64,000 nt of DNA from a phage. The notes below the pieces were generated by a model that worked only from the letters and a program-made list of their open reading frames with translations, was not told the origin of the DNA and did not search any database. A program made the position numbers and the translations under genes. The DNA lies in assembly GCA_030980935.1 (NCBI GenBank), contig GCA_030980935.1_3059.1; one strand, 5' to 3'. Below, in pieces: positions 2,381 to 57,573 of this stretch; positions within the stretch are counted from its first letter, which is position 1, and each line of letters begins with the position of its first letter.

Positions 2381-2388
2381 GAGGTATT

Positions 2389-3504
2389 ATGGAAAAATTT
2401 ATGGCAGAGTTTGGACAAGGATATGTCCAAACGCCATTTTTATCGGAAAGCAATTCAGTAAGATATAAAATAAGCATAGCGGGTTCTTGCCCGCTTTCTA
2501 CAGCAGGACCATACGTTAAATTTCAGGATAATCCTGTAGGAAGTCAAACATTTAGCGCAGGCCTTCATTTAAGAGTTTTTGACCCTTCCACCGGAGCGTT
2601 AGTTGATAGTAAATCATATGCTTTTTCGACTTCAAATGATACTACATCAGCTGCTTTTGCTAGCTTCATGAATTCTTTGACAAATAACAGAATTGTTGCT
2701 ATATTAACTAACGGAAAGGTTAATTTTCCTCCTGAAGTAGTATCTTGGTTAAGAACAGCAGGAACGTCTGCTTTTCCATCTGACTCTGTATTGTCAAGAT
2801 TCGACGTATCATATGCTGCTTTTTATACTTCTTCTAAAAGAGCTATTGCATTAGAGCATGTTAAACTGAGTAATAGAAAAAGCACAGATGATTATCAAAC
2901 TATTTTAGATGTTGTATTTGACAGTTTAGAAGACGTCGGAGCTACCGGGTTTCCAAGAAGAACGTATGAAAGCGTTGAGCAATTTATGTCAGCGGTTGGT
3001 GGAACTAATAACGAAATTGCAAGATTACCAACTTCAGCTGCTATAAGTAAACTCTCTGATTATAATTTAATTCCTGGTGACGTTCTTTATCTTAAAGCCC
3101 AGTTATATGCCGATGCTGATTTACTTGCGCTTGGAACTACAAATATATCTATCCGTTTTTATAATGCATCTAATGGATATATTTCCTCGACACAAGCTGA
3201 GTTTACTGGACAGGCTGGGTCTTGGGAATTAAAGGAAGACTATGTAGTTGTTCCAGAAAATGCAGTTGGATTTACGATATATGCACAGAGAACTGCTCAA
3301 GCGGGACAAGGCGGTATGCGAAATTTAAGCTTTTCTGAAGTATCAAGAAATGGCGGCATTTCAAAACCTGCTGAATTTGGCGTCAATGGTATTCGTGTTA
3401 ATTATATCTGTGAATCTGCTTCACCTCCGGATATAATGGTACTTCCTACGCAAGCATCGTCTAAAACTGGTAAAGTGTTTGGGCAAGAATTTAGAGAAGT
3501 ATAA
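2389..3504 (+). CDS. 35: Long tail fibre hinge connector gp35
   Basis: 371 aa (T4 gp35 about 372 aa); position between 34 and 36. Confidence 0.85.
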   Translation: MEKFMAEFGQGYVQTPFLSESNSVRYKISIAGSCPLSTAGPYVKFQDNPVGSQTFSAGLHLRVFDPSTGALVDSKSYAFSTSNDTTSAAFASFMNSLTNNRIVAILTNGKVNFPPEVVSWLRTAGTSAFPSDSVLSRFDVSYAAFYTSSKRAIALEHVKLSNRKSTDDYQTILDVVFDSLEDVGATGFPRRTYESVEQFMSAVGGTNNEIARLPTSAAISKLSDYNLIPGDVLYLKAQLYADADLLALGTTNISIRFYNASNGYISSTQAEFTGQAGSWELKEDYVVVPENAVGFTIYAQRTAQAGQGGMRNLSFSEVSRNGGISKPAEFGVNGIRVNYICESASPPDIMVLPTQASSKTGKVFGQEFREV

Positions 3505-3509
3505 ATTGA

Positions 3510-3534
3510 GGGAGCCTTCGGGTTCCCTTTTTCT
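3510..3534 (+). terminator. UUCG-tetraloop hairpin plus U-run after gene 35
   Basis: GGGAGCC-TTCG-GGTTCCC followed by TTTTT. Confidence 0.6.
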
Positions 3535-3535
3535 T

Positions 3536-3543
3536 TATAAATA
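3536..3543 (+). promoter_or_regulatory. Late promoter core TATAAATA upstream of gene 36
   Basis: Exact TATAAATA about 24 nt before gene 36 ATG. Confidence 0.7.
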
Positions 3544-3566
3544 CTATTAAAATAAAGGGGCATACA

Positions 3567-4232
3567 ATGGCTGATTTAAAAGTAGGTTCAACAACCGGAG
3601 GCTCTGTCATTTGGCATCAAGGAAATTTTCCATTGAATCCAGCCGGTGACGATGTACTCTATAAATCATTTAAAATATATTCAGAATATAATAAACCACA
3701 GGCAGCTGATAACGATTTCGTTTCTAAAGCTAATGGTGGTACTTATGCATCAAAGGTAACATTTAACGGCGGCGTCCAAGTCCCGTATGCTGTAAACAAC
3801 ACAAACCCATGCGGTATTTATCCAGGTAACGGTGATAATGCTACTTTTGCTGTAGCAAATATTGATATTGTTTCGTGGAATGGTATTGGTTTTAAATCAT
3901 CGCAAGGTTCAGCAGCCCGAACTGTTGTAATTAATGCACGTAATGGTGATATTAATACAAAAGGTGTTGTGTCTGCGGCAGGTCAAGTAAGAAGTGATGC
4001 AGCTGCTCCTATAGCAGCGAATGACCTTACTAGAAAGGACTATGTTGATGGAGCAATAAATACTGTTACAGCAAATGCAAACTCTAGAGTGTTACGATCT
4101 GGTGACACTATGACGGGAAACTTAACCGCACCAAACTTTTTCTCGCAGAATCCTGCATCTCAACCTTCACATGTTCCACGATTTGACCAAATCGTAATTA
4201 AGGATTCTGTTCAAGATTTCGGCTATTATTAA
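3567..4232 (+). CDS. 36: Long tail fibre distal connector gp36
   Basis: 221 aa as in T4; TATAAATA late promoter about 25 nt upstream. Confidence 0.85.
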
Positions 4233-4240
4233 GAGGACTT

Positions 4241-7200
4241 ATGGCTACTTTAAAACAAATACAATTTAAAAGAAGCAAAACCGCAGGTGCACGTCCTGCT
4301 GCTTCAGTATTAGCCGAAGGTGAATTGGCTATAAATTTAAAAGATAGAACAATTTTTACTAAAGACGATTCAGGAAATATCATTGACTTAAGCATTTCCG
4401 CTGGCGGTAATATTAGTGGAAATATCACTCAAACTGGCGATTATACACAGACTGGAAAATTTAATTTAATTGGTCCGCAAATTGTAGCAAGCGGTGGATA
4501 TATTGAGTTTAATTATCGTACTACTGGAAGTGGGGCTTGGTCCGGTCAACACACTGCAAAGGCTCCAATTTTTGTAGATTTAAGCTCAGCTACTTCCACA
4601 TCTGAATATAATCCTATAATTAAACAGCGCTTTAAAGATGGAACTTTTTCATTAGGTACTTTAGTTTCTGAAGGTTCGTTGAAGATTCATTATATCAATG
4701 AATCTGGCGATTCGAAATATTGGACGTTTCGACGTGACGGCGGATTTGTTGTTGACGGTGGAGGTTTAGCAGTATCAGGAGGTAGTATAACTACATCTGG
4801 AAATATTGCAGCTCTCGGAAATATTACTTCGCCTCAGATTAATACTAAAAATATTATTTTAGATACAAAAGCATTTGGACAATATGATTCACAGTCATTA
4901 GTTCAATATGTTTATCCTGGAACAGGTGAAGAAAATGGCATAAACTATCTTCGTAAAGTTCGAGCTAAATCAGGCGGAACTATTTACCATGAAATCGCTT
5001 CAGCTCAAACTGGTAAGAATGATGAAATTTCTTGGTGGACCGGAAATACACTTACTACTAAATTAATGGGTCTTCGTAATGATGGCGCAATGGTATTACG
5101 TCGTTCACTTGCTATTGGCACAATTACCACTGACGAAAATACTAACAACTATGGTTCTCCTACTCCAATGGGAGAAAGATATATTGCTTTGGGCGATGCT
5201 GCCACTGGTTTAAAATACATTAAGCAGGGCGTTTATGATTTAGTAGGTAATTGGAATTCTGTTGCGTCTATTACTCCTGATAGTTTCCGTAGTACTCGTA
5301 AAGCGATATTTGGACGTTCAGAAGACCAAGGTGGAACATGGATTATGCCTGGAACTAACGCTGCGCTTTTATCAGTTCAAACTCAAGCTGATGGAAACTC
5401 CGCTGGTGATGGTCAAACACACATTGGATATAATTCTGGCGGTAAAATGAACCACTATTTTCGTGGTACAGGTCAGATGAATATCAATACCCAACAGGGT
5501 ATGGAAATTAATCCAGGAGTGTTAAAATTAACCACTGGGGCAAATAATGTAATGTTATACGCGGACGGCGGTATTACATCTGTTAAGCAGCTTTCAATAT
5601 ACAATGGGGTGTATTTAGCAGCTAATAATTCTACTGCTGGGCTAACATTCGCTCCAACTACTACAATTGATGGCACTAAGCAAATTTTGTGGGAAGGCGG
5701 TACTCGTGCTGGTCAGAATAAAAGCTATGTAACTGTTAAAGCATGGGGTAATTCATTTAACGCATCTGGCGATCGTAATCGTGAAACGGTTTTTGAAGTA
5801 GCTGATGGACAAGGATATTATTTTTATTCACAGCGTGTGGCTCCAAGTGGCTCTGAAACTACTGGGCCTGTTGTAACCCAGTTCAATGGACAAGTTAATG
5901 CTAGAGGAAGTATTATTACTGACGGAAGTTTTAAAGTTAATGGATTAAGCACTTTAGTCGGTAATGTTACTATGTCTAATGGTTTGTTTGTCCAAGGTGG
6001 TTCTTCTATTACTGGACAGGTAAAAATTGGTGGAACGGCTGATGCATTAAGAATTTGGAATGCTGAATACGGTGCTATTTTCCGTCGTTCTGAAGATAAG
6101 TTTTATATTATTCCAACCCCACAGAATGCGGGTGAATCAGGCGGCATTTCTAATTTACGTCCGTTCTATATTACATTAAGTAATGGTAAAGTTTCCATGG
6201 ATCATGATGTAGATATCGGCGGCGGTAGATTTAAAGTAGAAGTGGCTGGAACTACTGCTAATCAACGCATAACAGTAAATATGGCATCAGATGCTATTAG
6301 AATAAATGCTCCAACACAAGAGTCTTCTAACTTCATTCAAGGACGTAAGGCTGATGTGCCTAAATGGTATTTGGGTATTGGCGATGGCGGCAACGTCGTT
6401 CGTATGCACAGCTACACATATTCACATGGTATTGCATTAAATTCTGATTCTGTCGATATTACTAAGCCTTTTAAAGTCGGAAATGCACAATTAGGAACTG
6501 ACGGTAATATTACCGGTGGTTCAGGAAACTTTGCTAATTTAAACAGTACAATTGAATCATTAAAAACCGATATTGTTTCAAGTTATCCTATTGGAGCTCC
6601 TATTCCATGGCCAACGGATACTCCTCCTGACGGTTACGCTATTATGGAAGGCCAGACTTTTGATAAGTCTGCATACCCAAAATTGGCTATGGCTTACCCA
6701 TCTGGCGTAATTCCAGATATGCGCGGGCAAACTATTAAAGGTAAACCAAGTGGTCGAGCTGTATTAAGCGCAGAAGCCGATGGTGTTAAGGCTCATAGCC
6801 ATAGTGCATCGGCTTCAAGTACTGACTTGGGTACTAAAACTACATCAAGCTTTGATTATGGTACTAAAACATCTTCAAGCTTTGATTATGGTACTAAGAC
6901 TAGTAACACCACAGGAAACCATAACCATACAGTGAGTGGTAATACTAGTTCCGCCGGTGCGCACCAACACAACGAAGGGACGTATTTTTCATCGTACGGA
7001 TACTTTATGAACGGATACAATACTCGCCAGTCATCGGGAGCTGCCATCGAAACATCCAATAGACAAGGCATAGCGTTTTATGGTAAAACCTCTAGTGCTG
7101 GTGCCCACACTCATAGTTGGTCAGGAACCACGAGTACTACAGGTAACCATGCTCATACTGTAGGTATAGGTGCTCATACCCATACTGTAGGTATAGGTGC

Positions 7201-10330: not shown

Positions 10331-10656
10331 TTAAACCATCCTTTAATACGCTGCCACAAAGTTTTCTGTTGAGCTTTGTTAACACCAATTGAGCGAATAA
10401 CTGGTTGAGATTCCTGGAATTCTTTATAATCAGCAAGGTAAATTTCGTAAGCTGCATCCGTAAATGAACTTATCGCCGCCATAAAATTATTGCGAATACC
10501 TGCTGGAGCATCTTTACTTTCACGAATAATCATGTATTTACCAGTCTTAATCTTTACGATAGTTCCAAGATAAGCTCCATGGTACCAGATGTCCCACCCC
10601 TCTTGAGTGGGTTCTGCACAACGACGAAGTTCATTAACAATTTCTAACTTGTTCAT
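10327..10656 (-). CDS. Hypothetical early protein (motA.1-like)
   Basis: 109 aa ORF immediately downstream of motA. Confidence 0.55.
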
Positions 10657-10666
10657 TATTTATTCC

Positions 10667-11302
10667 TCACAGTTCAGATGCTACGGTGATTACTGCTTCA
10701 ATGTTTTCTTCCGAGCGTTTAATGTCAAGATACACATTACCGTTTTTAGCGATTTTACATGACATTCCGATATCAGTAAATTTCTGAATATGATGTTCCA
10801 TCATTTTGTATCCAAAAATTCGCATATTTCCATTGTTGTTAATTTCAAAATTGCGAATTCCGTGAGTGCGTTTTTCTAAAATAGCGAGATAGTTACTGCG
10901 ATAAGTTTCAACCTTTTTAAGAACAAATCCATTTTCATCTAAAAGTTTTAACATGAGGTCTTTATCTTCTTCCATATCAGAAGTAATTTCGCGAGCTTTA
11001 CGAGTTGCTCGTTTTTTCAGCAGTTCAGGAGCGTTTTCCTGTGCGTATAAAGTTGCTGCATTTGAAATAATATCCTGGGCTTCACCTGTAATGATTAATC
11101 CATCACCAGATTTCTCCACCAGGCCTTTTTTAATCAATACCCCAATATTACTATTAACTACTGCGTTACCTAAATCTGGATGCACCTCACGAACTTCTGC
11201 AGCTGTAATGAAATCTTTCTTAGCAATAGTAATTAAAATCGCAGCAGTTTTTTCATTCAGAACATCGTTAGAAGCTTTGATGATGTAAGTTACTTTAGAC
11301 AT
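10667..11302 (-). CDS. motA: Middle-promoter transcription activator MotA
   Basis: 211 aa as T4 MotA; position between arn cluster and gene 52. Confidence 0.9.
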   Translation of the reverse strand: MSKVTYIIKASNDVLNEKTAAILITIAKKDFITAAEVREVHPDLGNAVVNSNIGVLIKKGLVEKSGDGLIITGEAQDIISNAATLYAQENAPELLKKRATRKAREITSDMEEDKDLMLKLLDENGFVLKKVETYRSNYLAILEKRTHGIRNFEINNNGNMRIFGYKMMEHHIQKFTDIGMSCKIAKNGNVYLDIKRSEENIEAVITVASEL

Positions 11303-11400
11303 TTTCTAATCTCCGTAATTCTGTATCAGTAGTTGATAGTTGTATAGTACCACAGTATGCTTTGGTTGTAAACCGTTTTGTGAAAAAATTTTAAAATAAA
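11303..11400 (-). promoter_or_regulatory. Early promoter cassette upstream of motA
   Basis: Conserved block gtagttgatagttgtatagtacca plus GTTTAC -35-like element. Confidence 0.5.
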
Positions 11401-11422
11401 AAGGGAGAGCCGAGGCTCTCCC
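11385..11422 (-). terminator. Intrinsic terminator
   Basis: GGGAGAGC-CUCG-GCUCUCCC stem-loop followed by U-rich tract on minus strand. Confidence 0.6.
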
Positions 11423-11427
11423 TAAAA

Positions 11428-11577
11428 TTACTGCATGACTGTGATAACTGTCATGATAACACGTTGAATTCCGAACGCAAGAAGACCTCCTGCTACGGCT
11501 GGAACGACACCTAAACCCGCCAGTAAAATGCTACCAGATACTAATGCAGCGCTTGTAATACCAATGAATGGACTCAT
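11428..11577 (-). CDS. Small hydrophobic protein (49 aa)
   Basis: MSPFIGITSAALVSGSILLAGLGVV...; ATG overlaps gp52 stop; followed by hairpin plus U-run terminator. Confidence 0.45.
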   Translation of the reverse strand: MSPFIGITSAALVSGSILLAGLGVVPAVAGGLLAFGIQRVIMTVITVMQ

Positions 11578-12902
11578 TTGATTTCCTCTAAATCTTTAGT
11601 GTATTCAGTAACTACATCAGTAGTTTTCCAATATTCGTTTTCTTCTTTTTTGGCTTTAGCTTCTTCAGCAAGTTTCTTCGCTTCATCGGAAGTCATATGA
11701 AAAATATTCATTCCAACTAATTTATCAACATAAGAAGAATACATATCGATTTTCGAAAGTTCTTCGGTCAGTTCTTTACGAGTTTTACCCTGTACAACAA
11801 TTACACCTGAAATTACTTTCTTAATGAAATGTGCCTTGGCAAAGGCTAAACGAAAAGCTGATTCAGTTTCTTTAATTTTGTTATCAATTCGTTTTTGAAC
11901 ATAAGTTTTACGAACTTCAACAAAGTCTTTAATTAAATCAACTACGTTATCGTAAACTTGTAGTTTTCCTTTCTCATTAATAACCGTAATATTCTGAGAA
12001 CGACGCTCAATCAACCCGAAGTCTTTCATAATTTTTGCATGGCGTTCTTCTTCGTTATCGCTCAAAGAATATTCTTTACGGAATTTAACTTTAAAGCCGA
12101 AGCCGTGCTCACCACAAGCATCATCCCATGTAATGAAGCCTTTATCTTCAAGTGGGTCTAAGATTTTACTCACATAAGTTTCACGATCATACTTATACGG
12201 AATCTCAGTGATATGCATTTGAGTTCGTGAAGTAAACTTATATGTTCCACGAATTTCATATTGCCCATCAATTTCAACGACTTCACCACGAAATTCTGGG
12301 AATTCTACCTTCGGTTTAGTTACTTTCTTTCCTTGAAGAGCTTGTAATACAGCTTTCTTAACAGAAGAAACGCTATGAGGAAGAATGTAAGTTGCATAAC
12401 CAGTTGCAATACCGGAAACGCCATTAAGAAGAACAGTAGGAATAATAGGCAAATAGAAAGCAGGCGGAATGTGTTCTTTATCTTGATGTACCGGAGCATA
12501 CTCAGTATCTTTATATACGTTATAGAAATTTTTACTTACACGAGCAAAAATATAACGACTTGCCGCTGCTTTTTGAACGGTACGAGAACCGAAGTTTCCT
12601 TGACCATCTAACAGAGGAAAGTTATTATTCCAAGTGTTAGCCATCAAAGCACCTGCGTCTTGTGCAGAGTTTTCACCATGATGATATCCAAGGTCAGCTA
12701 CACCACCTGCAATAGAAGCAAGTTTGTGAAACTTATCTTTATTTCCTCGTGCCAAATCAAGAGCTCGAGCAATAACAAATCGTTGAACTGGCTTAAATCC
12801 ATCAATCATATTTGGAATGGCACGATTTTCAACCGTGTACATAGCATAAGCCAATGCTTCATTATCAATGATACTTTTTAAATCGCGATTATTCAGTTGC
12901 AT
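11574..12902 (-). CDS. 52: DNA topoisomerase II medium subunit gp52
   Basis: 442 aa as T4 gp52; topoisomerase A-subunit-like sequence. Confidence 0.9.
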   Translation of the reverse strand: MQLNNRDLKSIIDNEALAYAMYTVENRAIPNMIDGFKPVQRFVIARALDLARGNKDKFHKLASIAGGVADLGYHHGENSAQDAGALMANTWNNNFPLLDGQGNFGSRTVQKAAASRYIFARVSKNFYNVYKDTEYAPVHQDKEHIPPAFYLPIIPTVLLNGVSGIATGYATYILPHSVSSVKKAVLQALQGKKVTKPKVEFPEFRGEVVEIDGQYEIRGTYKFTSRTQMHITEIPYKYDRETYVSKILDPLEDKGFITWDDACGEHGFGFKVKFRKEYSLSDNEEERHAKIMKDFGLIERRSQNITVINEKGKLQVYDNVVDLIKDFVEVRKTYVQKRIDNKIKETESAFRLAFAKAHFIKKVISGVIVVQGKTRKELTEELSKIDMYSSYVDKLVGMNIFHMTSDEAKKLAEEAKAKKEENEYWKTTDVVTEYTKDLEEIK

Positions 12903-12906
12903 AAAT

Positions 12907-13047
12907 TTACCATACTAGTGAATGTAGTGCCATAATAACATCAGAAATGAAAAGCACGACTTGAATTAATCCGAACATTACTCCATAATATAGTGCTACC
13001 AATAAAGTAGCAAGGGCTAGTGAATAGCCCAAGATTTTCTTAATCAT
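12907..13047 (-). CDS. Small membrane protein (46 aa, 52.1-like)
   Basis: MIKKILGYSLALATLLVALYYGV...; hydrophobic; below track cutoff. Confidence 0.4.
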   Translation of the reverse strand: MIKKILGYSLALATLLVALYYGVMFGLIQVVLFISDVIMALHSLVW

Positions 13048-13198
13048 TAGTAGATAACAACACAAATGTTAAATATGCACACATACCCTGGGCTAAAGCT
13101 TGTGAAAACACACTGCTAGCATCGATACAGATAGTTAAAACACATGCTACTATCCAACAAATAAATGAAATAACTCCTAATAATTTTGCGATATTCAT
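13040..13198 (-). CDS. ac: Small membrane protein, acriflavine-resistance Ac-like (52 aa)
   Basis: MNIAKLLGVISFICWIVACVL...; size and position (52-ac-stp-ndd) match T4 ac. Confidence 0.5.
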   Translation of the reverse strand: MNIAKLLGVISFICWIVACVLTICIDASSVFSQALAQGMCAYLTFVLLSTND

Positions 13199-13205
13199 AT
13201 TTTCC

Positions 13206-13286
13206 TCACTGGCGTCCGAAGACGCCTTTAGTTTTAAGATTATTACGATAGAACTGCATCACGTGTTCGTTGTGGAAATTACTCAT
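13206..13286 (-). CDS. stp: Stp peptide (26 aa), activator of host PrrC anticodon nuclease
   Basis: Translates to [26 protein letters not shown], recognised as T4 Stp; ATG overlaps ndd stop; internal UUCG hairpin. Confidence 0.85.
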
Positions 13287-13744
13287 TAATATGCCTGCAA
13301 AACGAATTTAAAGTTATCAGCCAACATACGGTTCATTTCTTCAAGTGTTTGATACTCAGAATGATGATTACGAGTAAACGCTAAAGCTAACTGTCCTTTT
13401 CCAAATCCCGTCGTCAGAGGTTTCATCTTAGAAGCAGGCAGATAAAATACTGTGTATGGAACATTGTTATTTGCAATAGTACGTGCAAGCTGAGACCGAC
13501 GTTGACGAATATGACTTAGAACTGCGCTGAATCCTTGCTTAGAACGCTGATTACCTACATAAAATCGTGCTGACACACATGGATTACTAAATGGACGACC
13601 ATCTAATTTACTTACTAAAAAGTAAAATCCAGGTTTAGATAAAATATCTTTATGCGGAGTTCCCAAAAACCACTCACCACCCTTGATTGTACCAATAACA
13701 GTAGCGCCTGCGTTGTTCAGATCAGTAACAGTCATGTATTTCAT
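13286..13744 (-). CDS. ndd: Nucleoid disruption protein Ndd
   Basis: Track ORF 13286-13798 trimmed to the Met giving 151 aa ([18 protein letters not shown]...) with SD GAGGA upstream. Confidence 0.85.
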
Positions 13745-13802
13745 ATTAATTTCCTCTAAATTATTTTCTACTCCAAGGCCGCATGAATACGCGGCCATTA
13801 AA

Positions 13803-14018
13803 TTAATCGTCGCAGTCGACGCTCAATTCCCAAAACTCTTCTACTGTATAAGTTTCAGTATCATTTTCAATACAGAAACGTTCATTACTATTATTTGCTA
13901 AAGTAGCATTAACTGTCGGTTTCTCGCTAGTGCTCTTAAGAGGTGAAATACGAATTAACTGATCACCGTTATCTAAACAGAAAATTTCACCAACTTTTAC
14001 ATCTTTAAAACTTTTCAT
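13803..14018 (-). CDS. Hypothetical protein (ndd.1-like)
   Basis: 71 aa ORF in ndd-denB hyperplastic cluster. Confidence 0.5.
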
Positions 14019-14133
14019 AATTCACCTCAAGGAGTATAAAATCCAAATGCAGTTGTTGACCATCCCATCCAATATGGGAAATTTGCACCAATGTAAAACA
14101 TGAGAATATAAAACCAAATGTTTAGTAAATTCA

Positions 14134-14352
14134 TCATTTTACACCATTCCAAATTGTTTCAACTACGGATTTTAAACCATTTTGATGAATATCCATTCCG
14201 ACTACCGCCATCAAATAGATTCCAACTACAACTGAACCTAAGGCAAAAATCAGCATAAAAATGAATAAAGCCGGAAAAATATTATCGAAAAACCATTCAA
14301 TAAATGTAAAAGCACTGCGTTTACGCTTCATATTTTCCTCACATAAATCCAA
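14134..14352 (-). CDS. Small membrane protein
   Basis: 72 aa, hydrophobic core FPALFIFMLIFALGSVVVGIYLMAVV. Confidence 0.5.
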   Translation of the reverse strand: MDLCEENMKRKRSAFTFIEWFFDNIFPALFIFMLIFALGSVVVGIYLMAVVGMDIHQNGLKSVVETIWNGVK

Positions 14353-14452
14353 AGTAAACGTTTAATACATCAATCATTAAAACGATTGGGAATATACTCA
14401 AAACTACTAGTATTATAACTACATTCCATATAGCTTTAACAATCTTTTTCAT
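14339..14452 (-). CDS. Small membrane peptide (about 37 aa)
   Basis: Track ORF 14339-14587 runs through a promoter cassette; likely true start is ATG with SD GGAGG giving MKKIVKAIWNVVIILVV... Confidence 0.4.
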   Translation of the reverse strand: MKKIVKAIWNVVIILVVLSIFPIVLMIDVLNVYFGFM

Positions 14453-14695
14453 TTTCTGTTCCTCCGTAGTTGATAGGGTAATAGTACCACGGAAGAACAG
14501 TCTTGTAAACAACTTTTTTAAAAATATTCGTAATAAATGTGAATACCAACTACTACCGCTGAAACCTGTGCAACCCACCACGCGCAAGCAATAAGTACAG
14601 AATTCAAAATTTTCATAATAACCTCATTACAAAAGTAAATGTTAAACAAATTAATGGAATACTAATTAACCAAACGAAACACCACCATAGTGAAC

Positions 14696-14968
14696 TCATA
14701 ACTCAATCTCAGCGATTTTCATTTCATTACTATTAATAGCCGCTTTAAGACTATCTGAAAGAATTACATCCCAGTGGTCATTCATATGACCATTAATTAA
14801 GCGTGTAATTTCTTCGGGAGTTGAAAAATAAGGCGTATCAGACTCCCAATGCGATAATCCTAAGCGAGTATAAATCATACCTTCATCATCGCTAGAATAT
14901 TCAACTGACACAAACTCATCAGTTATTTTATGTTTAGCGTAATAAAATTTAAATTTCATTTTACTCAA
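14696..14968 (-). CDS. Hypothetical protein
   Basis: 90 aa ORF, coupled to upstream ORF. Confidence 0.5.
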   Translation of the reverse strand: MSKMKFKFYYAKHKITDEFVSVEYSSDDEGMIYTRLGLSHWESDTPYFSTPEEITRLINGHMNDHWDVILSDSLKAAINSNEMKIAEIEL

Positions 14969-15171
14969 TAATCCGCTAAAAGATCGACGATTGCATCACG
15001 AAGACACTTATTCGCAATACGTTTAAGGGCAATTTCAGTTTCTGGAGCATTTTGAATAATCATCGAATTCAACTCAGCCTCAGCAAACTGAAGTTCTTTA
15101 ACTAGTTCAGCTTTATATTTCCCTTGCCCTTTCTTAGCCTTTGTCCGTTTTAATTCAGCTGTAGTAAACAT
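14965..15171 (-). CDS. Hypothetical protein (68 aa)
   Basis: Track N-terminus MENKM is a TTG artefact; true start is the ATG in conserved GGAGAATAAAATG. Confidence 0.5.
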   Translation of the reverse strand: MFTTAELKRTKAKKGQGKYKAELVKELQFAEAELNSMIIQNAPETEIALKRIANKCLRDAIVDLLADY

Positions 15172-15250
15172 TTTATTCTCCAAATCCGTATTAGTTGATA
15201 GTTGTATAGTACCACAGTCCTTGTGGTATGTAAACTGTTTTATGAAATTT
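15172..15250 (-). promoter_or_regulatory. Early promoter cassette (PeSL-like)
   Basis: Near-identical to the 11303, 23146 and 43358 copies; ends in GGAGAATAAAATG. Confidence 0.5.
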
Positions 15251-15252
15251 TT

Positions 15253-15810
15253 TTAAATAGAAAGATACCATCCATTGTAGTTGCTTTTTCTTACAACCTT
15301 ACGAAGGTCTTCTCTGTCACCGATGAACTTCGGAGTGTACTGGATGACACCTGGGTGAATTTCTTTAGTGTTGAATATAATTATACAGTCAGCGACCTGA
15401 TGATTCAGAATGGGCCCTAGATTTATTCCAGAACCATATGGATACTCTCCGCTGCATCCTGTTGTTACCGAAATCCAACGTGAGTCAGTTTGATGTGTCT
15501 TAACTTCTACACGAAGCCCACAGTATTTTGGATGCGCCAATACATCCCATGCGTATGTATACGGGTCATTAACATCCTCTTGGCCTTTATTAACATACCC
15601 GCTTAGCCAATCTGCTACAAAAAACTCTGCGTACACAGCGATACGGCATCTTTCGATAACTTCTGCCTTATCCTGGTTCGGATTTTGTTTTAAAGAGTAT
15701 CTTGCTGTATCAGCAATTTTGACCTTCATTTCACTAGTCAAGTCACTGTTCGATAGAGTAAATGTCGGAATCTGAAATAGTCTCTGTAAACCCGGATTCG
15801 TTTTCTGCAT
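15253..15810 (-). CDS. denB: Endonuclease IV DenB
   Basis: 185 aa as T4 DenB; position upstream of rIIB. Confidence 0.85.
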   Translation of the reverse strand: MQKTNPGLQRLFQIPTFTLSNSDLTSEMKVKIADTARYSLKQNPNQDKAEVIERCRIAVYAEFFVADWLSGYVNKGQEDVNDPYTYAWDVLAHPKYCGLRVEVKTHQTDSRWISVTTGCSGEYPYGSGINLGPILNHQVADCIIIFNTKEIHPGVIQYTPKFIGDREDLRKVVRKSNYNGWYLSI

Positions 15811-15875
15811 TAAACTTTCCTTTTACGTCGGAATCACTGATATTCATATAAATCATAATTTCTCTTAAAACAAAA

Positions 15876-15887
15876 GGGCCGAAGCCC
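15876..15887 (-). other. UUCG-tetraloop hairpin
   Basis: GGGC-CGAA-GCCC on plus strand (UUCG loop on minus-strand RNA). Confidence 0.5.
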
Positions 15888-15893
15888 CTTATT

Positions 15894-16088
15894 TTATTTG
15901 AATTGTGCAATTCTTTTCTCTAAACATTCAGCATAAGATTTCATTGAGATAAACTGCGAAAGTAGCAGTTCTTGCTCAACTGCACTAACTGTTAGAAACT
16001 TTGCGCTTTCTAAAAATTTGCTCAGTGCATTAATTTTGAGCATTAATTGATCGTATTCTTCTTTTACTCGTGCTTGATAACCTAACAT
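15894..16088 (-). CDS. Hypothetical protein (denB.1-like)
   Basis: 64 aa ORF flanked by UUCG hairpins. Confidence 0.5.
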   Translation of the reverse strand: MLGYQARVKEEYDQLMLKINALSKFLESAKFLTVSAVEQELLLSQFISMKSYAECLEKRIAQFK

Positions 16089-19516: not shown

Positions 19517-21337
19517 TTACTGGCTCATCCATTCTTTACGAAGGTCAGCATTATCTCCCATGAGCATTTCAAAAAGCTCTTTCCAGTTCTCAGGAAGTTT
19601 AACAACATCATATACTGGATTTTGAATCATCTCACGATATTCAGATTTTTCCAAAGAGCCAAGTCCTTTAATATAACGGATGCTATGTTTAGGTAGAGCA
19701 TCTTTGGCACTCTCATATTCAGCGACTGTATAAAACCATTCTTGTTTTTTACCGACCTGAGCGATGATTACAGGAGTTTTGACAAAGCGAATTCGTCCTT
19801 GCTCAAACAGTTCTGGCCAATTACTAAAAAATCCGAGCAGAGAAGGATAAATGCTTCCTAGACCATCATGGTCAGCATCAGTCATAATAGCAATATTATG
19901 ATAATTCAAGTTTTCAGCTTTTTCACCGAGAACTAATCCAGTGATTGCGCAAATATCAAATAGTTCTTTGTTTTTAAGCATATCTGCATAAGACATACCC
20001 CAACTGTTGAGAACTTTACCACGCAATGGATAACCACCATGAAGTTCTTTATCACGAACATCAATAAGATATCCGATAGCAGAATCACCCTCAGTCAAGA
20101 AAAGAGTAGTATCAGCATCTTTACCACAAAGATTCGCTTTAATATGTTTATGAACCTTAGCTTTAGAAGCCTTTTTAGCTGCTTTAGTTTCTGCTGCTTT
20201 TTCTGCCGCTAATTTACGAGCCAAGGCAGCTTCAATAATTGGCATTAAAATTGCTTCATTGTTTAAAATAGCGCGTGAAATCTTTTTAGCATCAAGTTGA
20301 ATATGACTACGAATTTCACCAAATGGAGAAGTCAAACGCTCTTTAGTTTGAGAATCAAATCGCATGTTTTTCATATCACGAACAAACATAACGATAGTCA
20401 AACATTCTTTAACACGTGCTTTAGTTACATCAATTTTGAACTTACGTTTGATTTGTGGAATAAGGTCTTCACAAATATCATCCATAACACAGTCAATGTG
20501 ATGGCCACCATTCTTAGTATGAATATTATTGACGTACGTCAACTGACGAAAACCATCCGGTGAACGACCAACCGCAATAGAACAATTTTCTTGTTCTTGA
20601 ACGATAGCATGTTCATCATACTGTCGTGCGTATTTCTTAAAATTGCCCTGAACCTTTTTACCATTAAAGGTAAATTGAATATCAGGATAAACAACAGCAA
20701 GTGTCTGGAGACGATCTAGTGTAATGTCAAGATAAACTTGGGACAGCTCATTAGTTTCAAATGACATAAAATCTGGAATGAAAGTAACACGAGTTCCTTT
20801 CCATTTTCCAGGAATAGTTTCCCAGGATTTATTTTCCATGCCATTTGAACAACGAACTACAATATTATTTTGACCATCGCCAGTTTCACCGACAAACATC
20901 ACAGAAAAAATGTTAGTTAAACTAGAACCAACACCATTCATACCACCGGTGACACGTTCTTTATCATCACCAAAGTTACCACCCGCTTTTGGAATAGTCC
21001 AAGCAGCAACTGGACCAGGAATTTCTTCACCGGTAGGTGTTTTAACCATCGCTTGTGGAATACCGCGACCGTTATCTTCAACTGTTACCTGATTATTTTT
21101 AATGGTAACATTAATTTTATTCGCGAATTTAAACTTAGTACGAATACCTTCATCGACTGAGTTATCGATAATTTCATCAATAAGCTTAACAAGACCAGGT
21201 ACATACTGAACACTTTCCCATTTACCAAACAGAAAGCGCTCATGCATTTCATTAGCAGAAGAGCCAATGTACATGCCACTACGCTTTTTGATATGTTCAA
21301 TATCGCTCAGAATTTTAATTTCATTCTTAATCATCAC
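19517..21337 (-). CDS. 39: DNA topoisomerase II large subunit gp39, unsplit form (gene 39 plus gene 60 equivalent)
   Basis: 606 aa with GyrB-like ATPase N-terminus and Toprim C-terminus in one ORF; likely start is second Met (21334). Confidence 0.9.
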   Translation of the reverse strand: MMIKNEIKILSDIEHIKKRSGMYIGSSANEMHERFLFGKWESVQYVPGLVKLIDEIIDNSVDEGIRTKFKFANKINVTIKNNQVTVEDNGRGIPQAMVKTPTGEEIPGPVAAWTIPKAGGNFGDDKERVTGGMNGVGSSLTNIFSVMFVGETGDGQNNIVVRCSNGMENKSWETIPGKWKGTRVTFIPDFMSFETNELSQVYLDITLDRLQTLAVVYPDIQFTFNGKKVQGNFKKYARQYDEHAIVQEQENCSIAVGRSPDGFRQLTYVNNIHTKNGGHHIDCVMDDICEDLIPQIKRKFKIDVTKARVKECLTIVMFVRDMKNMRFDSQTKERLTSPFGEIRSHIQLDAKKISRAILNNEAILMPIIEAALARKLAAEKAAETKAAKKASKAKVHKHIKANLCGKDADTTLFLTEGDSAIGYLIDVRDKELHGGYPLRGKVLNSWGMSYADMLKNKELFDICAITGLVLGEKAENLNYHNIAIMTDADHDGLGSIYPSLLGFFSNWPELFEQGRIRFVKTPVIIAQVGKKQEWFYTVAEYESAKDALPKHSIRYIKGLGSLEKSEYREMIQNPVYDVVKLPENWKELFEMLMGDNADLRKEWMSQ

Positions 21338-21403: not shown

Positions 21404-21676
21404 TTATTTAAAACGAATAGTTGAATCCTTAAAGAACAGCCCAGAACATACTGTTCCTTCTACTTTCTGCCCGGTAGGTCCAATAGCACGAAATCCAGTA
21501 TGCTGGAAATCATTTTCAGAGCAACCGAACCAATTATATCCAGTGATTTCAATATTAGTAAAACCACTTGAAGACAAAACTTTGGTTGCATTATCAGCAT
21601 CAGTACATCCTACTAAAGATACTGCTAATACTAATGCCGCGATAGAACGATTAACATATTTCATAATTTCACTCAA
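21404..21676 (-). CDS. Putative lipoprotein
   Basis: Signal peptide with lipobox LVGC; about 60-aa mature part with 3 Cys. Confidence 0.5.
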   Translation of the reverse strand: MSEIMKYVNRSIAALVLAVSLVGCTDADNATKVLSSSGFTNIEITGYNWFGCSENDFQHTGFRAIGPTGQKVEGTVCSGLFFKDSTIRFK

Positions 21677-22040
21677 ATTTAATGGCTTGAAGGAGACTAA
21701 TAATTCTCAAGCGACTTCTTTCATCTTTAACTGTAAAAGAAAGAGGGTCACCAGATTTCATAGTGATAGTGCATTCAAAATCAAAATCTTCTGTGACTTC
21801 TTCAAAGAAGTCAAATTCTTCATCATAAATTAGAACATTACTCTGAAAACTGTGAAGAATTTTTCCATCATTTCCGGATGCTGTACTAATCATTGTAACA
21901 TTATGACCTTTCATATCTTCAACGATAAATTCGCTTGTAGATATTACAGCATTAATAGAACCATTCCTATAAATAGCAGACATTAGATATTTCTTTTCTT
22001 CGCCTTTGCGAATACGATACTTCTTACCGATTTTAAACAT
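21669..22040 (-). CDS. Hypothetical protein
   Basis: 123 aa ORF, acidic C-terminal half. Confidence 0.5.
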   Translation of the reverse strand: MFKIGKKYRIRKGEEKKYLMSAIYRNGSINAVISTSEFIVEDMKGHNVTMISTASGNDGKILHSFQSNVLIYDEEFDFFEEVTEDFDFECTITMKSGDPLSFTVKDERSRLRIISLLQAIKFE

Positions 22041-22875: not shown

Positions 22876-23145
22876 TTAATTAAACATTGGAGCGATACGT
22901 TTCAGAAGAGTAGCAGCACCTTTAGCGAATTTTACATCATGAAAAACAGTTTCTTCTTCTGTAACAACTCGAACTTTAATATTTTCACAATCCCAATTTT
23001 TACGAACAATCTTCAAAAGCTGCAGTAAATCTTTACATTCAGCAATATCGATAACACATCCACGAGAATCTTCCATTATCGCACGATAACCGTAAGCCAT
23101 ACCATAATCGTTAAAAGATTGCTCGATGATAATTAAGTTTTCCAT
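22876..23145 (-). CDS. Hypothetical protein (89 aa)
   Basis: Track start MENKM is a TTG artefact; true ATG in GGAGAATAAAATG downstream of promoter cassette. Confidence 0.5.
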   Translation of the reverse strand: MENLIIIEQSFNDYGMAYGYRAIMEDSRGCVIDIAECKDLLQLLKIVRKNWDCENIKVRVVTEEETVFHDVKFAKGAATLLKRIAPMFN

Positions 23146-23240
23146 TTTATTCTCCAAGTTGTTTTCTGTATCAGTAGTTGATATTGATATAGTACCATAA
23201 TCAACTACTGATGTATATAGTTTTATGAAAAAAATTTAAA
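23146..23240 (-). promoter_or_regulatory. Early promoter cassette (PeSL-like)
   Basis: Repeat copy; ends in GGAGAATAAAATG. Confidence 0.5.
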
Positions 23241-23242
23241 CT

Positions 23243-23734: not shown

Positions 23735-23807
23735 AGTTATCTCTCACTTGTTAAAAAGATTTTATACTCCACGGGACCATTATACTCTGGTCCCAAGAGT
23801 TTGTAAA

Positions 23808-24255: not shown

Positions 24256-24768
24256 TTAATCTAAGGTAATAAAGCCTTTTAATTCGGCATGCGATTTGCG
24301 GAACATTACTTGATGTCCGCCAATGATAACTTGGTCATCTGGCACTTCATAAATCGCAATGTACATTCCACGTTCTTTTAAGTCTTCACGCTCTTCTCGA
24401 GTGAACCATCTCATCATATCATATTCACTAGCGAAAGCAAAATGATATAATGCAATAAACCACAATGGAATATAATTTTCAATTCGTGAATAATCTTTAT
24501 TCCATTTAGTTTTAATAACATCATTAGCATTTTCAACTAATAACTTATCATCGTGTGGAATAGGAATACTTTCATGGCTTTCATAATTATCGCTATGATG
24601 ATGAAATGACGATGAATTAATACCGCAAAATTTTAGCCAAGTTCGAGTTTTCATAGAATCAAATCCACGATAAGGAGTTGATTGAACGCATAACTCTTGC
24701 CTAATTTTGACTATACCACTATCATCATTTAATGCGCTAAACGATGATTCAACACGATAAATTTTCAT
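24256..24768 (-). CDS. Hypothetical protein (motB.2-like)
   Basis: Track ORF 24256-24807 trimmed to MKIYRVESS with SD GAGGA; the longer version runs through the promoter -10. Confidence 0.5.
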   Translation of the reverse strand: MKIYRVESSFSALNDDSGIVKIRQELCVQSTPYRGFDSMKTRTWLKFCGINSSSFHHHSDNYESHESIPIPHDDKLLVENANDVIKTKWNKDYSRIENYIPLWFIALYHFAFASEYDMMRWFTREEREDLKERGMYIAIYEVPDDQVIIGGHQVMFRKSHAELKGFITLD

Positions 24769-43120: not shown

Positions 43121-43357
43121 TCAAATGCAAGTAGTAATTACTCCAGTAGTGCTTATGCAGGTATTACCCATTTGCACACCTAAAGATCCATTTGTATTCA
43201 CATGAAGATTATCATCAATTTTAACTGATATTTTACCATTAGTGTGAATAACGGTGCTAGATTTAATCACAGGTTGAGTATCATTTTCAACACTAACAAA
43301 TGGAACTGCTACTAATGCAACTAAACAAACTGCTAAGCATCCCATAACAATTTTCAT
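43121..43357 (-). CDS. Small secreted protein (78 aa)
   Basis: True start MKIVMGCLAVCLVALVAVPF after TTG artefact; signal peptide; own promoter cassette. Confidence 0.5.
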   Translation of the reverse strand: MKIVMGCLAVCLVALVAVPFVSVENDTQPVIKSSTVIHTNGKISVKIDDNLHVNTNGSLGVQMGNTCISTTGVITTCI

Positions 43358-43440
43358 TTTATTCTCCAAATCTGTATCAGTAGTTGATAGTTGTATAGTA
43401 CCATGGAAGAACAGTCTTGTAAACAGTTTTGTGAAAATTT
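43358..43440 (-). promoter_or_regulatory. Early promoter cassette (PeSL-like)
   Basis: Repeat copy with GTTTAC -35 and TACTAT -10-like elements; ends in GGAGAATAAAATG. Confidence 0.5.
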
Positions 43441-43511
43441 TTTAGGGAATTCTAAAGATCCAGAATCATCTGTTTTTCATAAGTATAGATTTATATTACT
43501 TGTATGAAAAA

Positions 43512-57285: not shown

Positions 57286-57415
57286 AAATCATGTGTTTAT
57301 GTAACTTGAGTATAATATAGCAAACTTCAAAACTATTTACATGAGTAACACGAACAGCATTACCATTAATGAGATAATACTGTCCCTTTTTAATTTCTTT
57401 ATCAACCACAACCAT
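57233..57415 (-). CDS. Hypothetical protein
   Basis: 60 aa ORF downstream of an early promoter cassette. Confidence 0.45.
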   Translation of the reverse strand: MVVVDKEIKKGQYYLINGNAVRVTHVNSFEVCYIILKLHKHMICDRAVFSSVAKEIKLHG

Positions 57416-57573
57416 ATCAATTCCTCAAAGGTAATTCATGTGTTAATAATACCACAGTTTGAGCTCGTTGTAAACAACTTTGTGAAAATTATTTTAGGGA
57501 ATGATAAGAAGGGAACGATAGCTTAGAATGGTAATATACAGAATGTAAGAAAGAAAGGCCCAGAGGGCCCGTC

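Follow-up and report, generated by a model that had tools for sequence, protein, structure and literature searches.

The early promoters of bacteriophage T4 are composed of an UP element, a -35 box, a TGn extension and a -10 box (PMC2988021). Their consensus comprises a GTTTAC(A) -35 box, a 17-nt spacer, a TGn extended -10 and a TAnnAT -10 hexamer, together with A/T-rich UP elements and further conserved positions outside the hexamers, and they are placed before early genes (Hinton 2010, PMC2988021; Nolan et al. 2006, PMC1524935). In T4-type phages, these promoters are also found within repeated composites named PeSL, in which an AT-rich region, an early promoter, a Shine-Dalgarno (SD) sequence and an ATG follow each other, with stem-loops located upstream of, between or overlapping the promoter boxes. 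Arbiol et al. (2010, PMC2839356) described PeSL for phi1/RB49, and Comeau et al. (2014, PMC4122927) did so explicitly for T4/PST, with the consensus TTTACW-N17-TAYWAT followed by SD and ATG; they are clustered in hyperplastic regions and adjoin indels between close relatives, and the published example of exchange, ndd.4/.5, is located in the ndd cluster considered below. Regarding the messages of early genes, the endoribonuclease RegB with ribosomal protein S1 recognizes the consensus GGAGRAYARAA, with GGAGAAUAAAA as the T4 optimum and motA as a good, documented substrate (Durand et al. 2006, PMC1702504), the sites being located in single-stranded leaders (PMC1702504; Uzan and Miller 2010, PMC3014915). 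Lastly, the T4 genes e, soc, 49 and I-TevI carry a helix that sequesters the ribosome-binding site (RBS) and whose 5' arm lies upstream of the promoter-proximal start, so that long read-through transcripts are masked and the transcripts of the embedded promoter are open; those are late promoters, resulting in late-only translation (PMC3014915, section 29).

The stretch of DNA analyzed here (the window; 64,000 nucleotides) comes from a T4-like coliphage (Tequatrovirus) with approximately 96-97% identity to RB14, slur02 and PST. It contains repeated elements of about 90 bp, which, judged from their sequence, most probably (about 0.9) are sigma-70-dependent early promoters of the T4 type, each continuing into a short, unstructured leader and the translation initiation region, thus forming PeSL-type cassettes. 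This was the core of the original prediction, and it holds, fitting the PST/T4 consensus (PMC4122927). The same five cassettes are present at the same loci of T4 (motA, ndd.4 and the ndd.6, cef and imm.1 regions), and the window motA, ndd, cef and imm.1 sites are orthologous to the T4 sequences and almost identical to them: the motA upstream region differs from its T4 counterpart by one extra A in the upstream A/T run, and the 23143 cassette does not differ at all. The elements are genuine but ordinary, as early promoters, PeSL cassettes and the RegB site have all been published previously. The cassettes, named below by the position of their start codons, and the features around them are listed in Table 1.

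Table 1. Cassettes, open reading frames and associated features of the window, with positions on the 64,000-nt stretch.
Feature	Position	Strand	Details
motA early-promoter cassette	11300..11397	-	motA ORF 10667-11302
Parts of the motA cassette	UP 11373-11397; -35 11367-11372; -10 11344-11349; ATG 11300-11302	-	-35 TTTACA; -10 TACTAT
Intrinsic terminator	11402..11423	-	AGGGAGAGCCUCGGCUCUCCCU then U5; directly upstream of the motA promoter
ndd.4-type cassette	14450..14534	-	-35 14504-14509; -10 14481-14486; orthologous to the T4 ndd.4 promoter
Membrane-type ORF, 37 aa	14339-14452	-	driven by the ndd.4-type cassette; PHROG 3098, function unknown
Stem-loop, 15 bp, in the ndd.4-type cassette	14456..14500	-	spacer (CUGUUCUUCCGUGGU) pairs with leader and SD (ACUACGGAGGAACAG)
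ORF2, 87 aa	14699..14959	-	absent from T4; PHROG 2390
ORF1, 68 aa	14968..15171	-	directly behind the 15169 cassette; PHROG 4535, function unknown
Cassette downstream of denB	15169..15259	-	drives ORF1; RBS GGAGAATAAAATG; orthologous T4 promoter upstream of ndd.6
GGAGAATAAAA, exact match to the optimal T4 RegB/S1 cleavage site	15171..15181; also 23145-23155 and 43357-43367	-	
ORF-B, 89 aa	22879..23145	-	behind the 23143 cassette; PHROG 3720
Cassette downstream of motB	23143..23242	-	drives the 89-aa ORF upstream of cef; variant -35 TATACA; RBS GGAGAATAAAATG
Perfect inverted repeat, 13 bp	23170..23212	-	AUCAGUAGUUGAU / AUCAACUACUGAU, enclosing the -10 hexamer; -20.2 kcal/mol
ORF-C, 78 aa	43124..43357	-	signal-peptide-like N-terminus; PHROG 4189
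Cassette between gene 43 and imm.1	43355..43450	-	drives ORF-C; mosaic of blocks
Early promoter of the 55.6 orthologue	57413..57502	-	shares -35, UP element and the ATTCCCTAAAA block with the 43355 cassette

A repeat search returned one 77-nt family, with copies at 11319, 14456, 15181, 23164, 43370 and 57421 (61-78% identity to the reference), each of them directly upstream of a minus-strand ORF. The sequence CATTTTATTCTCC occurs exactly at 15169, 23143 and 43355 (0.21 expected by chance in the scan of the window), and the 33-nt core TCTGTATCAGTAGTTGATAGTTGTATAGTACCA is found without mismatches at 11320 and 43371 and with three at 23165 (0.00 expected). The block that the cassettes share at the start site and leader is ACAACTATCAACTACTGATAC, followed by the RBS. 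The five copies announced upstream of minus-strand ORFs thus exist, far beyond chance, but at coordinates about 3 nt lower than those given, the start codons (CAT on the plus strand) being located at 11300, 14450, 15169, 23143 and 43355. They had been called near-identical, which the multiple alignment confirms for a core of about 30-45 nt in three to four copies but not for the whole cassette, with 68% mean column identity. The plus-strand sequence quoted for 11303 is actually that of the 43355 copy, the text at 11300 being CATTTTCTAATCTCCGTAATTCTGTATCAG. Similarly, the RBS/start end described as conserved is present as GGAGAATAAAATG in three of the five copies but reads GGAGATTAGAAAATG in motA and GGAGGAACAGAAAATG in the 14450 copy, and the GTTTAC box is present in four, the 23143 copy having TATACA instead. 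The second conserved block does recur twice, but at 43418-43450 and 57469-57502 rather than 43411 and 57441, in copies that differ by a 1-nt indel. The MENKM N-termini of the ORF track were rightly regarded as an artefact, as TTG-GAG-AAT-AAA-ATG reads L/M-E-N-K-M in frame with the true ATG.

Each copy has the same layout, composed of an UP element, GTTTACA, 17 nt and TGG-TACTAT. More precisely, four copies have TTTACA-N17-TACTAT and the 23143 copy has TATACA-N17-TACTAT, the TACTAT of all five is preceded by TGG, and A/T-rich blocks of the type AAAAAATTTTCA(C/T)AAAAC lie upstream of the -35 box. Compared to the general class of T4 early promoters, the five copies form a sub-family with TACTAT instead of TATAAT, and the block they have in common, which runs from the start site into the leader, is longer. 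Scanning for a generic sigma-70 consensus was uninformative, with 60 sites against 58.7 expected and no enrichment in the region, so that a T4-specific matrix was needed; this position-weight matrix gave 16 sites in the window, every one of which lies on the minus (coding) strand with SD and ATG following within 28-47 nt, motA being among the downstream genes. In the motA cassette, the 17-nt spacer ends in TGG, and the predicted +1 (A) at 11337 is followed by the leader and the SD GGAG; the other predicted +1 positions are 14474, 15199, 23182 and 43388, and that of motA in T4 is located at approximately 163,637. A dRNA-seq data set exists for T4 (bioRxiv 10.1101/2024.04.04.588121), and the primer extensions in the DksA paper concern other Pe promoters only. 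Considering the sequence together with published T4 biology, host RNA polymerase would bind the UP element, GTTTACA, the 17-nt spacer and TGG-TACTAT right after DNA injection, the first transcribed base would be the A of CTATCAAC, approximately 7 nt beyond the -10 hexamer, and the mRNA, having an open leader, would be translated at once.

The predicted folding of these messages agrees with an open leader: the leaders reach -0.3 to -2.7 kcal/mol, no better than shuffles, with GGAG unpaired, and the predicted proximal transcripts 0 to -5 kcal/mol, with an unpaired probability of the stretch from SD to AUG of 0.49-0.86 in the three copies with a RegB site. GGAGRAYARAA has only three matches in the window, which are the RBSs of the 15169, 23143 and 43355 cassettes, and, as in the T4 sites, GGAGAAUAAAA is their SD region. 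The RBS of motA matches at 10 of 11 positions. The ndd.4-type RBS of the 14450 copy differs from the T4 sites, as it misfits the consensus and sits within a stem. Like the T4 sites, the three exact matches are predicted to lie in single-stranded leaders of early genes. RegB and ribosomal protein S1 may then cut at the GGAGAAUAAAA RBS of these three copies; as the three RBSs are the RegB optimum, cleavage would inactivate the messages within minutes, limiting expression to the immediate-early period. To our knowledge, RegB cleavage at the three ORFs with this RBS has no published case.

The ORFs behind the cassettes belong only to PHROG families without known function and have no Pfam match. 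A DpnII-like assignment for the ORF at 33859-34416 was rejected, its match being below the Pfam cut-off and having no PDB support. The original prediction regarded the ORFs behind the cassettes as the likeliest recently acquired accessory genes, which is plausible for ORF1: it is present in 117 of approximately 540-565 related phage records and absent from T4, from loci L034/L035 and from divergent phages that keep ORF2. The latter is found in 369 of these records, and in divergent T4-like phages, its orthologue lies directly behind the same promoter as that of the 15169 cassette. The ORFs of the 23143 and 43355 cassettes are polymorphic, and those behind the three indel-abutting cassettes occur in only 21-58% of relatives. 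ORF-C is present in 319 of the approximately 540-565 records; T4 lacks it and has imm.1 directly under the control of the same promoter. On the other hand, ORF-B has an internal frameshifting deletion of about 200 bp in T4, the deleted stretch being intact in 261 of the approximately 540-565 records, which indicates a loss in T4 and not a gain in the window; motA, in turn, is a core gene and not an accessory one.

It had also been proposed that the cassettes mark junctions of gene shuffling. Compared with T4, the 15169, 23143 and 43355 cassettes each have an indel exactly at their start codon, with junction microhomologies of 4-9 bp at the RBS/ATG (AAT(A/G)AAATG, AAAA and ATGAAAAT). With one other early promoter added to these three of the five copies, 4 of the 16 cassettes carry an indel boundary (0.95 expected, P=0.010 under random placement), and in 3 of 16, it lies at most 12 nt from the start codon (P=0.001, random placement). 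However, 10 of the 17 indels between the window and T4 have an upper boundary no more than 12 nt away from a start codon, whether or not a promoter is present, and only three of them involve cassettes; the excess at cassettes is not significant when the general tendency of indels to fall at gene starts is taken into account. The A-rich RBS-ATG-AAA with which the cassettes end recurs before many genes and may supply the microhomology for deletion or insertion of whole ORFs behind a promoter. Recombination of whole cassettes as the source of the indels relative to T4 was rejected, the junctions being only 4-9 bp of RBS/ATG microhomology, and differently from the published PeSL, they touch only the RBS/ATG end, with no crossover between two cassettes.

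These observations bring forward a different explanation, to which we give a chance only slightly below even: the cassettes do not drive shuffling, and ORF indels stop at gene boundaries since other events would not survive in a genome so tightly packed; the indels would arise through microhomology at any A-rich RBS-ATG sequence, as deletions or insertions, hitting the cassettes in proportion to their share of gene starts. In agreement with it, besides the counts and short junctions above, the junctions 21667-22037, 26018-26248 and 61058-61194 use RBS/ATG microhomology with no promoter, and in six further indels, the sequence absent from the window holds, by the T4 annotation, homing-endonuclease or intron-associated genes (mobA with the gene 60 region, segF, segA, mobB, mobC and I-TevII). 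It is opposed by the module at 33944-34479, a promoter and ORF unit with its upstream junction inside the UP element and 95-100% identity across 148 records, by the inverse PCR of RB49/phi1, where mini-circles resulted from crossovers between the -10 and SD/ATG of flanking PeSLs (PMC2839356), and by the mosaic nature of the cassettes themselves. As indels end at gene starts generally and several ORF-sized ones have no promoter at the junction, the cassettes are at most candidate drivers of the shuffling.

Regarding the origin of the likeness among copies, the 43355 copy combines blocks from four others: its upstream block matches 57469-57502, its spacer agrees with that of the 14509 copy in 16 of 17 positions, its 33-nt core is that of motA and its RBS that of the 15169 and 23143 copies. 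Unlike the 43355 cassette, the promoter at 57413..57502 has its own -10 (TATTAT) and its own leader; the -35 box of the 43355 cassette is preceded, at a distance of about 60 nt, by the gene 43 terminator. Across IMG/VR, 14 different ORF N-termini follow the core TACTAT-N4-CTATCAACTA, and recombinant cassettes are found, such as L009, with an imm.1-type upstream half and a cef-type leader. The copies would thus be paralogues kept alike by selection on each functional block and by exchange between cassettes, the exchange of blocks being suggested by the mosaic structure. Orthologous cassettes of T4 and the window are nevertheless more alike than paralogues within either genome, so cassette exchange is not frequent on this time scale, and concerted evolution of the copies within one genome was rejected for the same reason.

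Convergent selection only, in which each copy would independently match an optimal promoter, start context and RegB site with no common descent or exchange, appears improbable. Every strongly conserved block is indeed a known functional element (UP, -35, TGn/-10, +1 region and RegB 11-mer), and early promoters with unrelated spacers in divergent lineages likewise contain the core CTATCAAC. However, positions without known function are shared as well, such as the spacer AGACTGTTCTTCC(G/A)TGG between the 14509 and 43423 promoters (the 16 of 17 positions above), ATTCCCTAAAA, which both the 43423 and the 57474 promoter have ahead of the UP element, and the leader CTGATACAGA common to three copies, besides the block-wise mosaics at IMG/VR loci.

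The inverted repeat UAUCA/UGAUA, attributed by the original prediction to all the copies, is present in three of the five; a 3-nt deletion breaks it in the 15169 copy, and the 14450 copy lacks it. As a meaningful structure, it must be abandoned: the hairpin reaches only -1.9 kcal/mol (z -0.35 to -0.42), 54-59 of 200 shuffles fold as well, and the real stem-loops are located elsewhere. A structured cis-regulatory RNA based on this repeat, with the conserved leader ACAACUAUCAACUACUGAUACAGA acting as a protein- or sRNA-binding hairpin or as an attenuator, is consequently very improbable, despite the identity of the 33-nt core in two copies and the 5-bp inverted repeat in three, as the predicted start site also cuts off the first base of the hairpin and an Rfam scan of the whole window gave no match. 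The idea that a small mobile element or a site-specific recombination site, and not a promoter, underlies the repeats can be set aside almost entirely, since their dispersed copies and association with indels are outweighed by a single orientation exactly before start codons, the same loci in T4 and the window, junctions of short microhomology only, and the lack of terminal inverted repeats, target-site duplications or an associated recombinase.

Returning to the cassettes as early promoters of PeSL type, the predicted stem-loops match in position the published PeSL subclasses. The motA copy, alone among the five, has an adjacent intrinsic terminator, whose hairpin is the stem-loop part of a classical terminator/promoter composite; the 14450 and 23143 copies have their 15-bp and 13-bp stems, both enclosing the -10; the 15169 copy has a small 7-bp hairpin within its spacer (ACCACAAGGACUGUGGU); and the 43355 copy has only a weak 5-bp repeat after the -10. 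For spacer-internal hairpins of the 15234 type, one common register across lineages was considered and rejected, as the registers differ by 1 nt. Differently from the published PeSL, the stem-loops of the window, except that of motA, have no U-tract of an intrinsic terminator, and the pairing of spacer with SD in the ndd.4-type stem looks more like translation masking than termination. The latter stem, with the -10 hexamer and the predicted start site in its loop, reaches -22.7 kcal/mol, below 15 of 15 chimeric controls; across nine variants, 91.9% of cells are paired, and the SD change GGAGG to GGAGA is offset by C to U in the spacer. The energy of the 23143 stem is likewise below all chimeric controls. 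In these two copies, the stem-loops are strong and covary, the promoter spacer pairing with the leader or SD, and, as the spacer is not transcribed from the cassette's own promoter, they could form only in read-through RNA from the upstream gene.

This pattern extends beyond the two copies: the stems of 6 of the 16 window promoters and of 7 of 29 non-redundant families beat every or nearly every spacer/leader chimera (p<=0.05; binomial p=4.6e-4). Across four lineages, the helix after gene 41 retains 97.6% pairing, both partners being changed in 9 of 12 pairs, and has nine G.U pairs against one A.C in the sense strand, which disfavours a DNA cruciform instead of RNA for the nested stem-loops; the SD of motB.2 is masked in three lineages through three different registers. 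We tentatively propose, at somewhat worse than even odds, that many T4-type PeSL stem-loops are selected sense-strand RNA helices and not terminators, masking read-through RNA and forming with RegB an "immediate-early only" gate. In such a gate, the helix would pair the untranscribed spacer (or the -10/start-site region) with the leader or SD of the next gene, keeping read-through RNA translationally masked, and only the transcripts of the embedded early promoter would be open, to be then destroyed by RegB. The arrangement resembles that of e, soc, 49 and I-TevI, but with an early promoter, which would result in early-only translation. Against its novelty, Arbiol et al. (2010, PMC2839356) already list stem-loops overlapping promoter boxes.

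The cassettes add no new kind of element. They mark the transcription units and variable immediate-early ORFs of the phage, showing where small accessory genes without known function plug in behind ready-made promoter/RBS modules. One modest addition is that the three identical RBSs are the exact RegB/S1 optimum. The gate, if true, would carry the late-promoter paradigm of e, soc, 49 and I-TevI over to early promoters, among them the promoters of modB and other toxic genes. The other modest addition is that the promoter-nested stem-loops covary as sense-strand RNA and often mask the SD, which suggests a testable way by which genes may be confined to the first minutes of infection.

The repeated element described in the original prediction exists: CATTTTATTCTCC is exact at 15169, 23143 and 43355 (0.21 expected), and a 33-nt core lies at 11320 and 43371 with 0 mismatches and at 23165 with 3 (0.00 expected). 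A repeat search joins the copies into one 77-nt family with 61-78% identity to its reference. The copies are found at the predicted sites, although not at the exact positions, their minus-strand start codons being at 11300, 14450, 15169, 23143 and 43355, and the sequence quoted for 11303 is that of the 43355 copy. As the conserved RBS and start, GGAGAATAAAATG holds in three copies only, and the GTTTAC box in four. Three copies carry the 5-bp inverted repeat UAUCA/UGAUA; the 14450 copy lacks it, and a 3-nt deletion destroys it in the 15169 version. The second conserved block was misplaced, its true sites being 43418-43450 and 57469-57502, and the MENKM N-termini are indeed an artefact of an in-frame TTG upstream, within TTGGAGAATAAAATG. 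The stretch 11303-11400, immediately upstream of motA (ORF 10667-11302, 211 aa), is T4 sequence except for one additional A in the upstream A/T run.

On the minus strand, the parts follow one another in the same way in every copy: an A/T-rich block such as AAAATTTTTTCACAAAAC, then G-TTTACA, a 17-nt stretch with TGG at its end, TACTAT, a leader reading ACAACTATCAACTACTGATAC(A/G)GA or a shortened version, an SD and ATG. With a matrix built from such sites, 16 were found in the window, all 16 on the coding strand and each followed by an SD and ATG. They agree with T4 early promoters as described in the literature, which have a UP/-35/TGn/-10 layout and additional consensus (PMC2988021), as well as with the PST/T4 consensus of promoter-early stem-loop (PeSL) cassettes, TTTACW-N17-TAYWAT followed by SD and ATG (PMC4122927). 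In every sequence-level test, the elements behave as T4 early promoters and PeSL cassettes and, in three copies, as predicted RegB/S1 sites. PeSLs have been known from phi1/RB49 since 2010 (PMC2839356) and from T4/PST since 2014, with an ORF exchange in the very ndd cluster seen here (PMC4122927); the finding is therefore real and already known, and its PeSL-type interpretation stands in the main, with the details corrected.

Positions of the promoter copies, the ORFs behind them and the stem-loops (handles of the first five copies are minus-strand start codons)
Feature	Position	Strand	Gene driven (homology with T4)
motA copy	11300	-	motA
14450 copy	14450	-	ndd.4-like 37-aa ORF
15169 copy	15169	-	ORF upstream of ndd.6
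23143 copy	23143	-	ORF upstream of cef
43355 copy	43355	-	ORF upstream of imm.1
Sixth, looser copy	57474 (promoter)		55.6 orthologue
77-nt repeat family	11319, 14456, 15181, 23164, 43370, 57421
ORF1; ORF2 (behind 15169)	14968-15171; 14699-14959	-
ORF-B (behind 23143)	22879-23145	-
ORF-C (behind 43355)	43124-43357	-
Other promoter-nested stem-loops	37664-37704, 24766-24824, 29968-30025, 23770-23807, 34414-34470	-
GGGCC-GAAG-GCCC hairpin	15859-15898, 16092, 21373, 46282, 48229, 52939, 56578

Regarding the RBS, the conserved 3' block GGAGAAUAAAA is letter for letter the cleavage optimum of T4 RegB with ribosomal protein S1, whose consensus is GGAGRAYARAA (Durand et al. 2006, PMC1702504), and motA is listed as a good RegB substrate (PMC1702504; also PMC3014915). 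This consensus has three matches in the 64 kb, all of them cassette RBSs. RegB requires single-stranded RNA, and the cassette leaders are unstructured, folding no more stably than shuffled sequences (-0.3 to -2.7 kcal/mol); consequently, the UAUCA/UGAUA repeat is not a meaningful structure. From these matches, we infer that the 3' block would be a strong, open RBS destroyed by RegB within minutes.

The window is placed in Tequatrovirus by megablast, with 10500-16000 sharing 97.3% identity with phages slur02/slur04 and 97.0% with RB14, and about 540-565 phage records match it at >=80% identity. It has 31-39% G+C and carries almost all genes beyond ~8.8 kb on the minus strand. Its colinearity with T4 (NC_000866), at 88-97% identity, runs from gene 37 via rIIB/rIIA as far as nrdC. 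A single 606-aa ORF (19517-21337, minus strand) covers T4 genes 39 and 60, and T4 2793-3911 (60.1, mobA and the gene 60 translational-bypass region) is missing. Compared with T4, segF, mobB, mobC and the I-TevII-bearing nrdD intron are also missing, and a different 946-bp segment replaces segA and beta-glucosyltransferase (32452/32498, 40649-41594, 54162/54187, 58663-58683, 59959/59962). Two 49-nt stretches (35897-35945 and 36255-36303; 94% identity, 358 bp apart), both opening with a start codon of the minus strand (CAT), flank a 363-bp segment specific to the window (35946-36308), an arrangement that looks like a small-ORF tandem duplication in the 61.1/61.2 region. Several short in-frame direct repeat families in the plus-strand tail-fibre genes at 1-7200 (e.g., 89/464/572, 6815-6904 and 6910-7191) fit the repetitive modules of the distal tail fibre (gp37) in T-even phages.

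The cassettes had also been proposed to mark gene-shuffling junctions. When the early region is aligned with T4 by blastn, 17 gaps appear, three of which adjoin cassette start codons. The promoter downstream of denB is followed directly by the ORF2 tail in T4, and by ORF1 and ORF2 in the window (microhomology AAT(A/G)AAATG); the T4 ORF behind the 23143-type cassette has a ~200-bp internal frameshifting deletion (microhomology AAAA); and the 43355-type promoter drives imm.1 directly in T4, with ORF-C lying between in the window (microhomology ATGAAAAT). A fourth junction belongs to a promoter and ORF module (33944-34479), its upstream junction being within the UP element; 148 phage records, T2 among them, contain this module with 95-100% identity. 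Under random placement, four cassettes with an indel boundary compare with 0.95 expected (P=0.010), and three boundaries <=12 nt from a cassette start codon with 0.23 (P=0.001). However, 10 of the 17 gaps have ends <=12 nt from some start codon, and RBS/ATG microhomology is also seen at several ORF-sized indels without a promoter; therefore, the cassette ends are one case of a general rule. Indels do adjoin cassettes above random, but this excess loses significance when their preference for gene starts in general is allowed for, so the cassettes are no more than candidate drivers of the shuffling. Six of the gaps are T4 sequence missing from the window, with homing-endonuclease or intron-associated genes in the T4 annotation. 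The ORF of this module (33859-34416, minus strand; 186 aa) is driven by an early promoter of its own and is an insertion relative to T4, placed between gene 61 and dam; its sub-threshold Pfam match to the restriction endonuclease DpnII (15.7 bits against a cut-off of 23, E=0.0099) is intriguing beside the GATC methylase gene dam, and a search of the PDB gave no support for a DpnII-like protein.

ORF1, ORF2, ORF-C and the ORF-B stretch missing from T4 are present in 117, 369, 319 and 261 of the ~540-565 related records, respectively, and all four ORFs fall in PHROG families of unknown function. ORF1 is the sole ORF missing at two related-phage loci (L034 and L035), and in divergent phages (~70% identity) the promoter lies directly before the ORF2 orthologue, so ORF1 is an inserted gene. 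The expectation of accessory genes behind the cassettes is plausible for ORF1, and the other ORFs are polymorphic; motA is instead a core regulator. In IMG/VR, TTTACA-N17-TACTAT-N4-CTATCAACTA occurs at 36 loci in ~20 T4-like genomes, before 14 different ORF N-termini. The 43355 copy is a block mosaic: its upstream block is that of the 57474 promoter, its spacer comes from the 14509 promoter (14450 cassette), its core from motA and its RBS from 15169/23143. Another related locus (L009) combines an imm.1-type upstream half with a cef-type leader. Such mosaics argue for an exchange of blocks between cassettes, but a window copy resembles its T4 orthologue more than its paralogues, so this exchange would be old or rare.

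As for stem-loops, among the five copies an adjacent intrinsic terminator occurs at motA only (11423-11402); at the 43355 cassette, the terminator of gene 43 is found ~60 nt upstream of the -35 (43423 promoter). Strong helices are nested in two promoters: a 15-bp helix in the 14450 copy, where the spacer pairs with ACUACGGAGGAACAG, the SD (-22.7 kcal/mol), and a perfect 13-bp repeat enclosing the -10 in the 23143 copy (-20.2 kcal/mol). In the 15169 copy, a 7-bp hairpin lies within the spacer. When compared with chimeras in which leaders were swapped between promoters (15 per promoter), 6 of the 16 window promoters fold better than all 15, and of 29 non-redundant promoter families, IMG/VR relatives included, 7 reach p<=0.05 (binomial p=4.6e-4). 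The dmd, motB.2, modB, motB and 34470-module early promoters also lie inside strong stem-loops (-12 to -24 kcal/mol), the 5' arm being the promoter spacer or -10 region and the 3' arm the start-site region or SD/AUG. Downstream of dexA in the more distant RB49-like genomes (L160, L162 and L163), the -35 hexamer is enclosed by a G+C-rich stem, and the U-tract of this stem makes up the promoter spacer, as in GGAACAG-TTTACAT-CTGTTCC-TTTT...TATAAT, which by its sequence is an extremely compact terminator/promoter overlap. The intergenic GGGCC-GAAG-GCCC hairpin, on the coding strand GGGCUUCGGCCC with a C(UUCG)G tetraloop, is present seven times, and one copy (15890-15873) scores as an intrinsic terminator; we take it to be the classical very stable intercistronic/terminator hairpin of T4.

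In four lineages, an early promoter immediately follows the gene 41 stop codon, with its -10 in an 8-nt loop between arms of 10-12 bp that differ in sequence between the lineages. This helix retains 97.6% pairing with both partners substituted in 9 of 12 pairs, a result reached by 0 of 500 shuffles (slid controls, 29-61%), and its 9 G.U cells against 1 A.C point to coding-sense RNA, i.e., read-through transcripts. In the ndd.4-type helix (91.9% paired), the SD change GGAGG to GGAGA is matched by a spacer C to U, and downstream of dexA the motB.2 SD is masked in three different registers by three lineages. This covariation supports selection on promoter-nested helices. Predicted accessibility of the translation initiation region is 0.27 in read-through vs 0.79 in promoter-proximal RNA for ndd.4, 0.21 vs 0.70 for modB and 0.31 vs 0.65 for motB.2. 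The nested anatomy is not new, as Arbiol et al. (2010, PMC2839356) distinguished five subclasses of PeSL according to where the stem-loop lies (upstream, overlapping the -35 or -10, between the boxes, or after the -10). The reading of the helices as translational masks may be novel, analogous to the late-promoter cases of T4 e, soc, 49 and I-TevI, and the remaining interest lies in promoter-nested helices as possible early-only translational gates.
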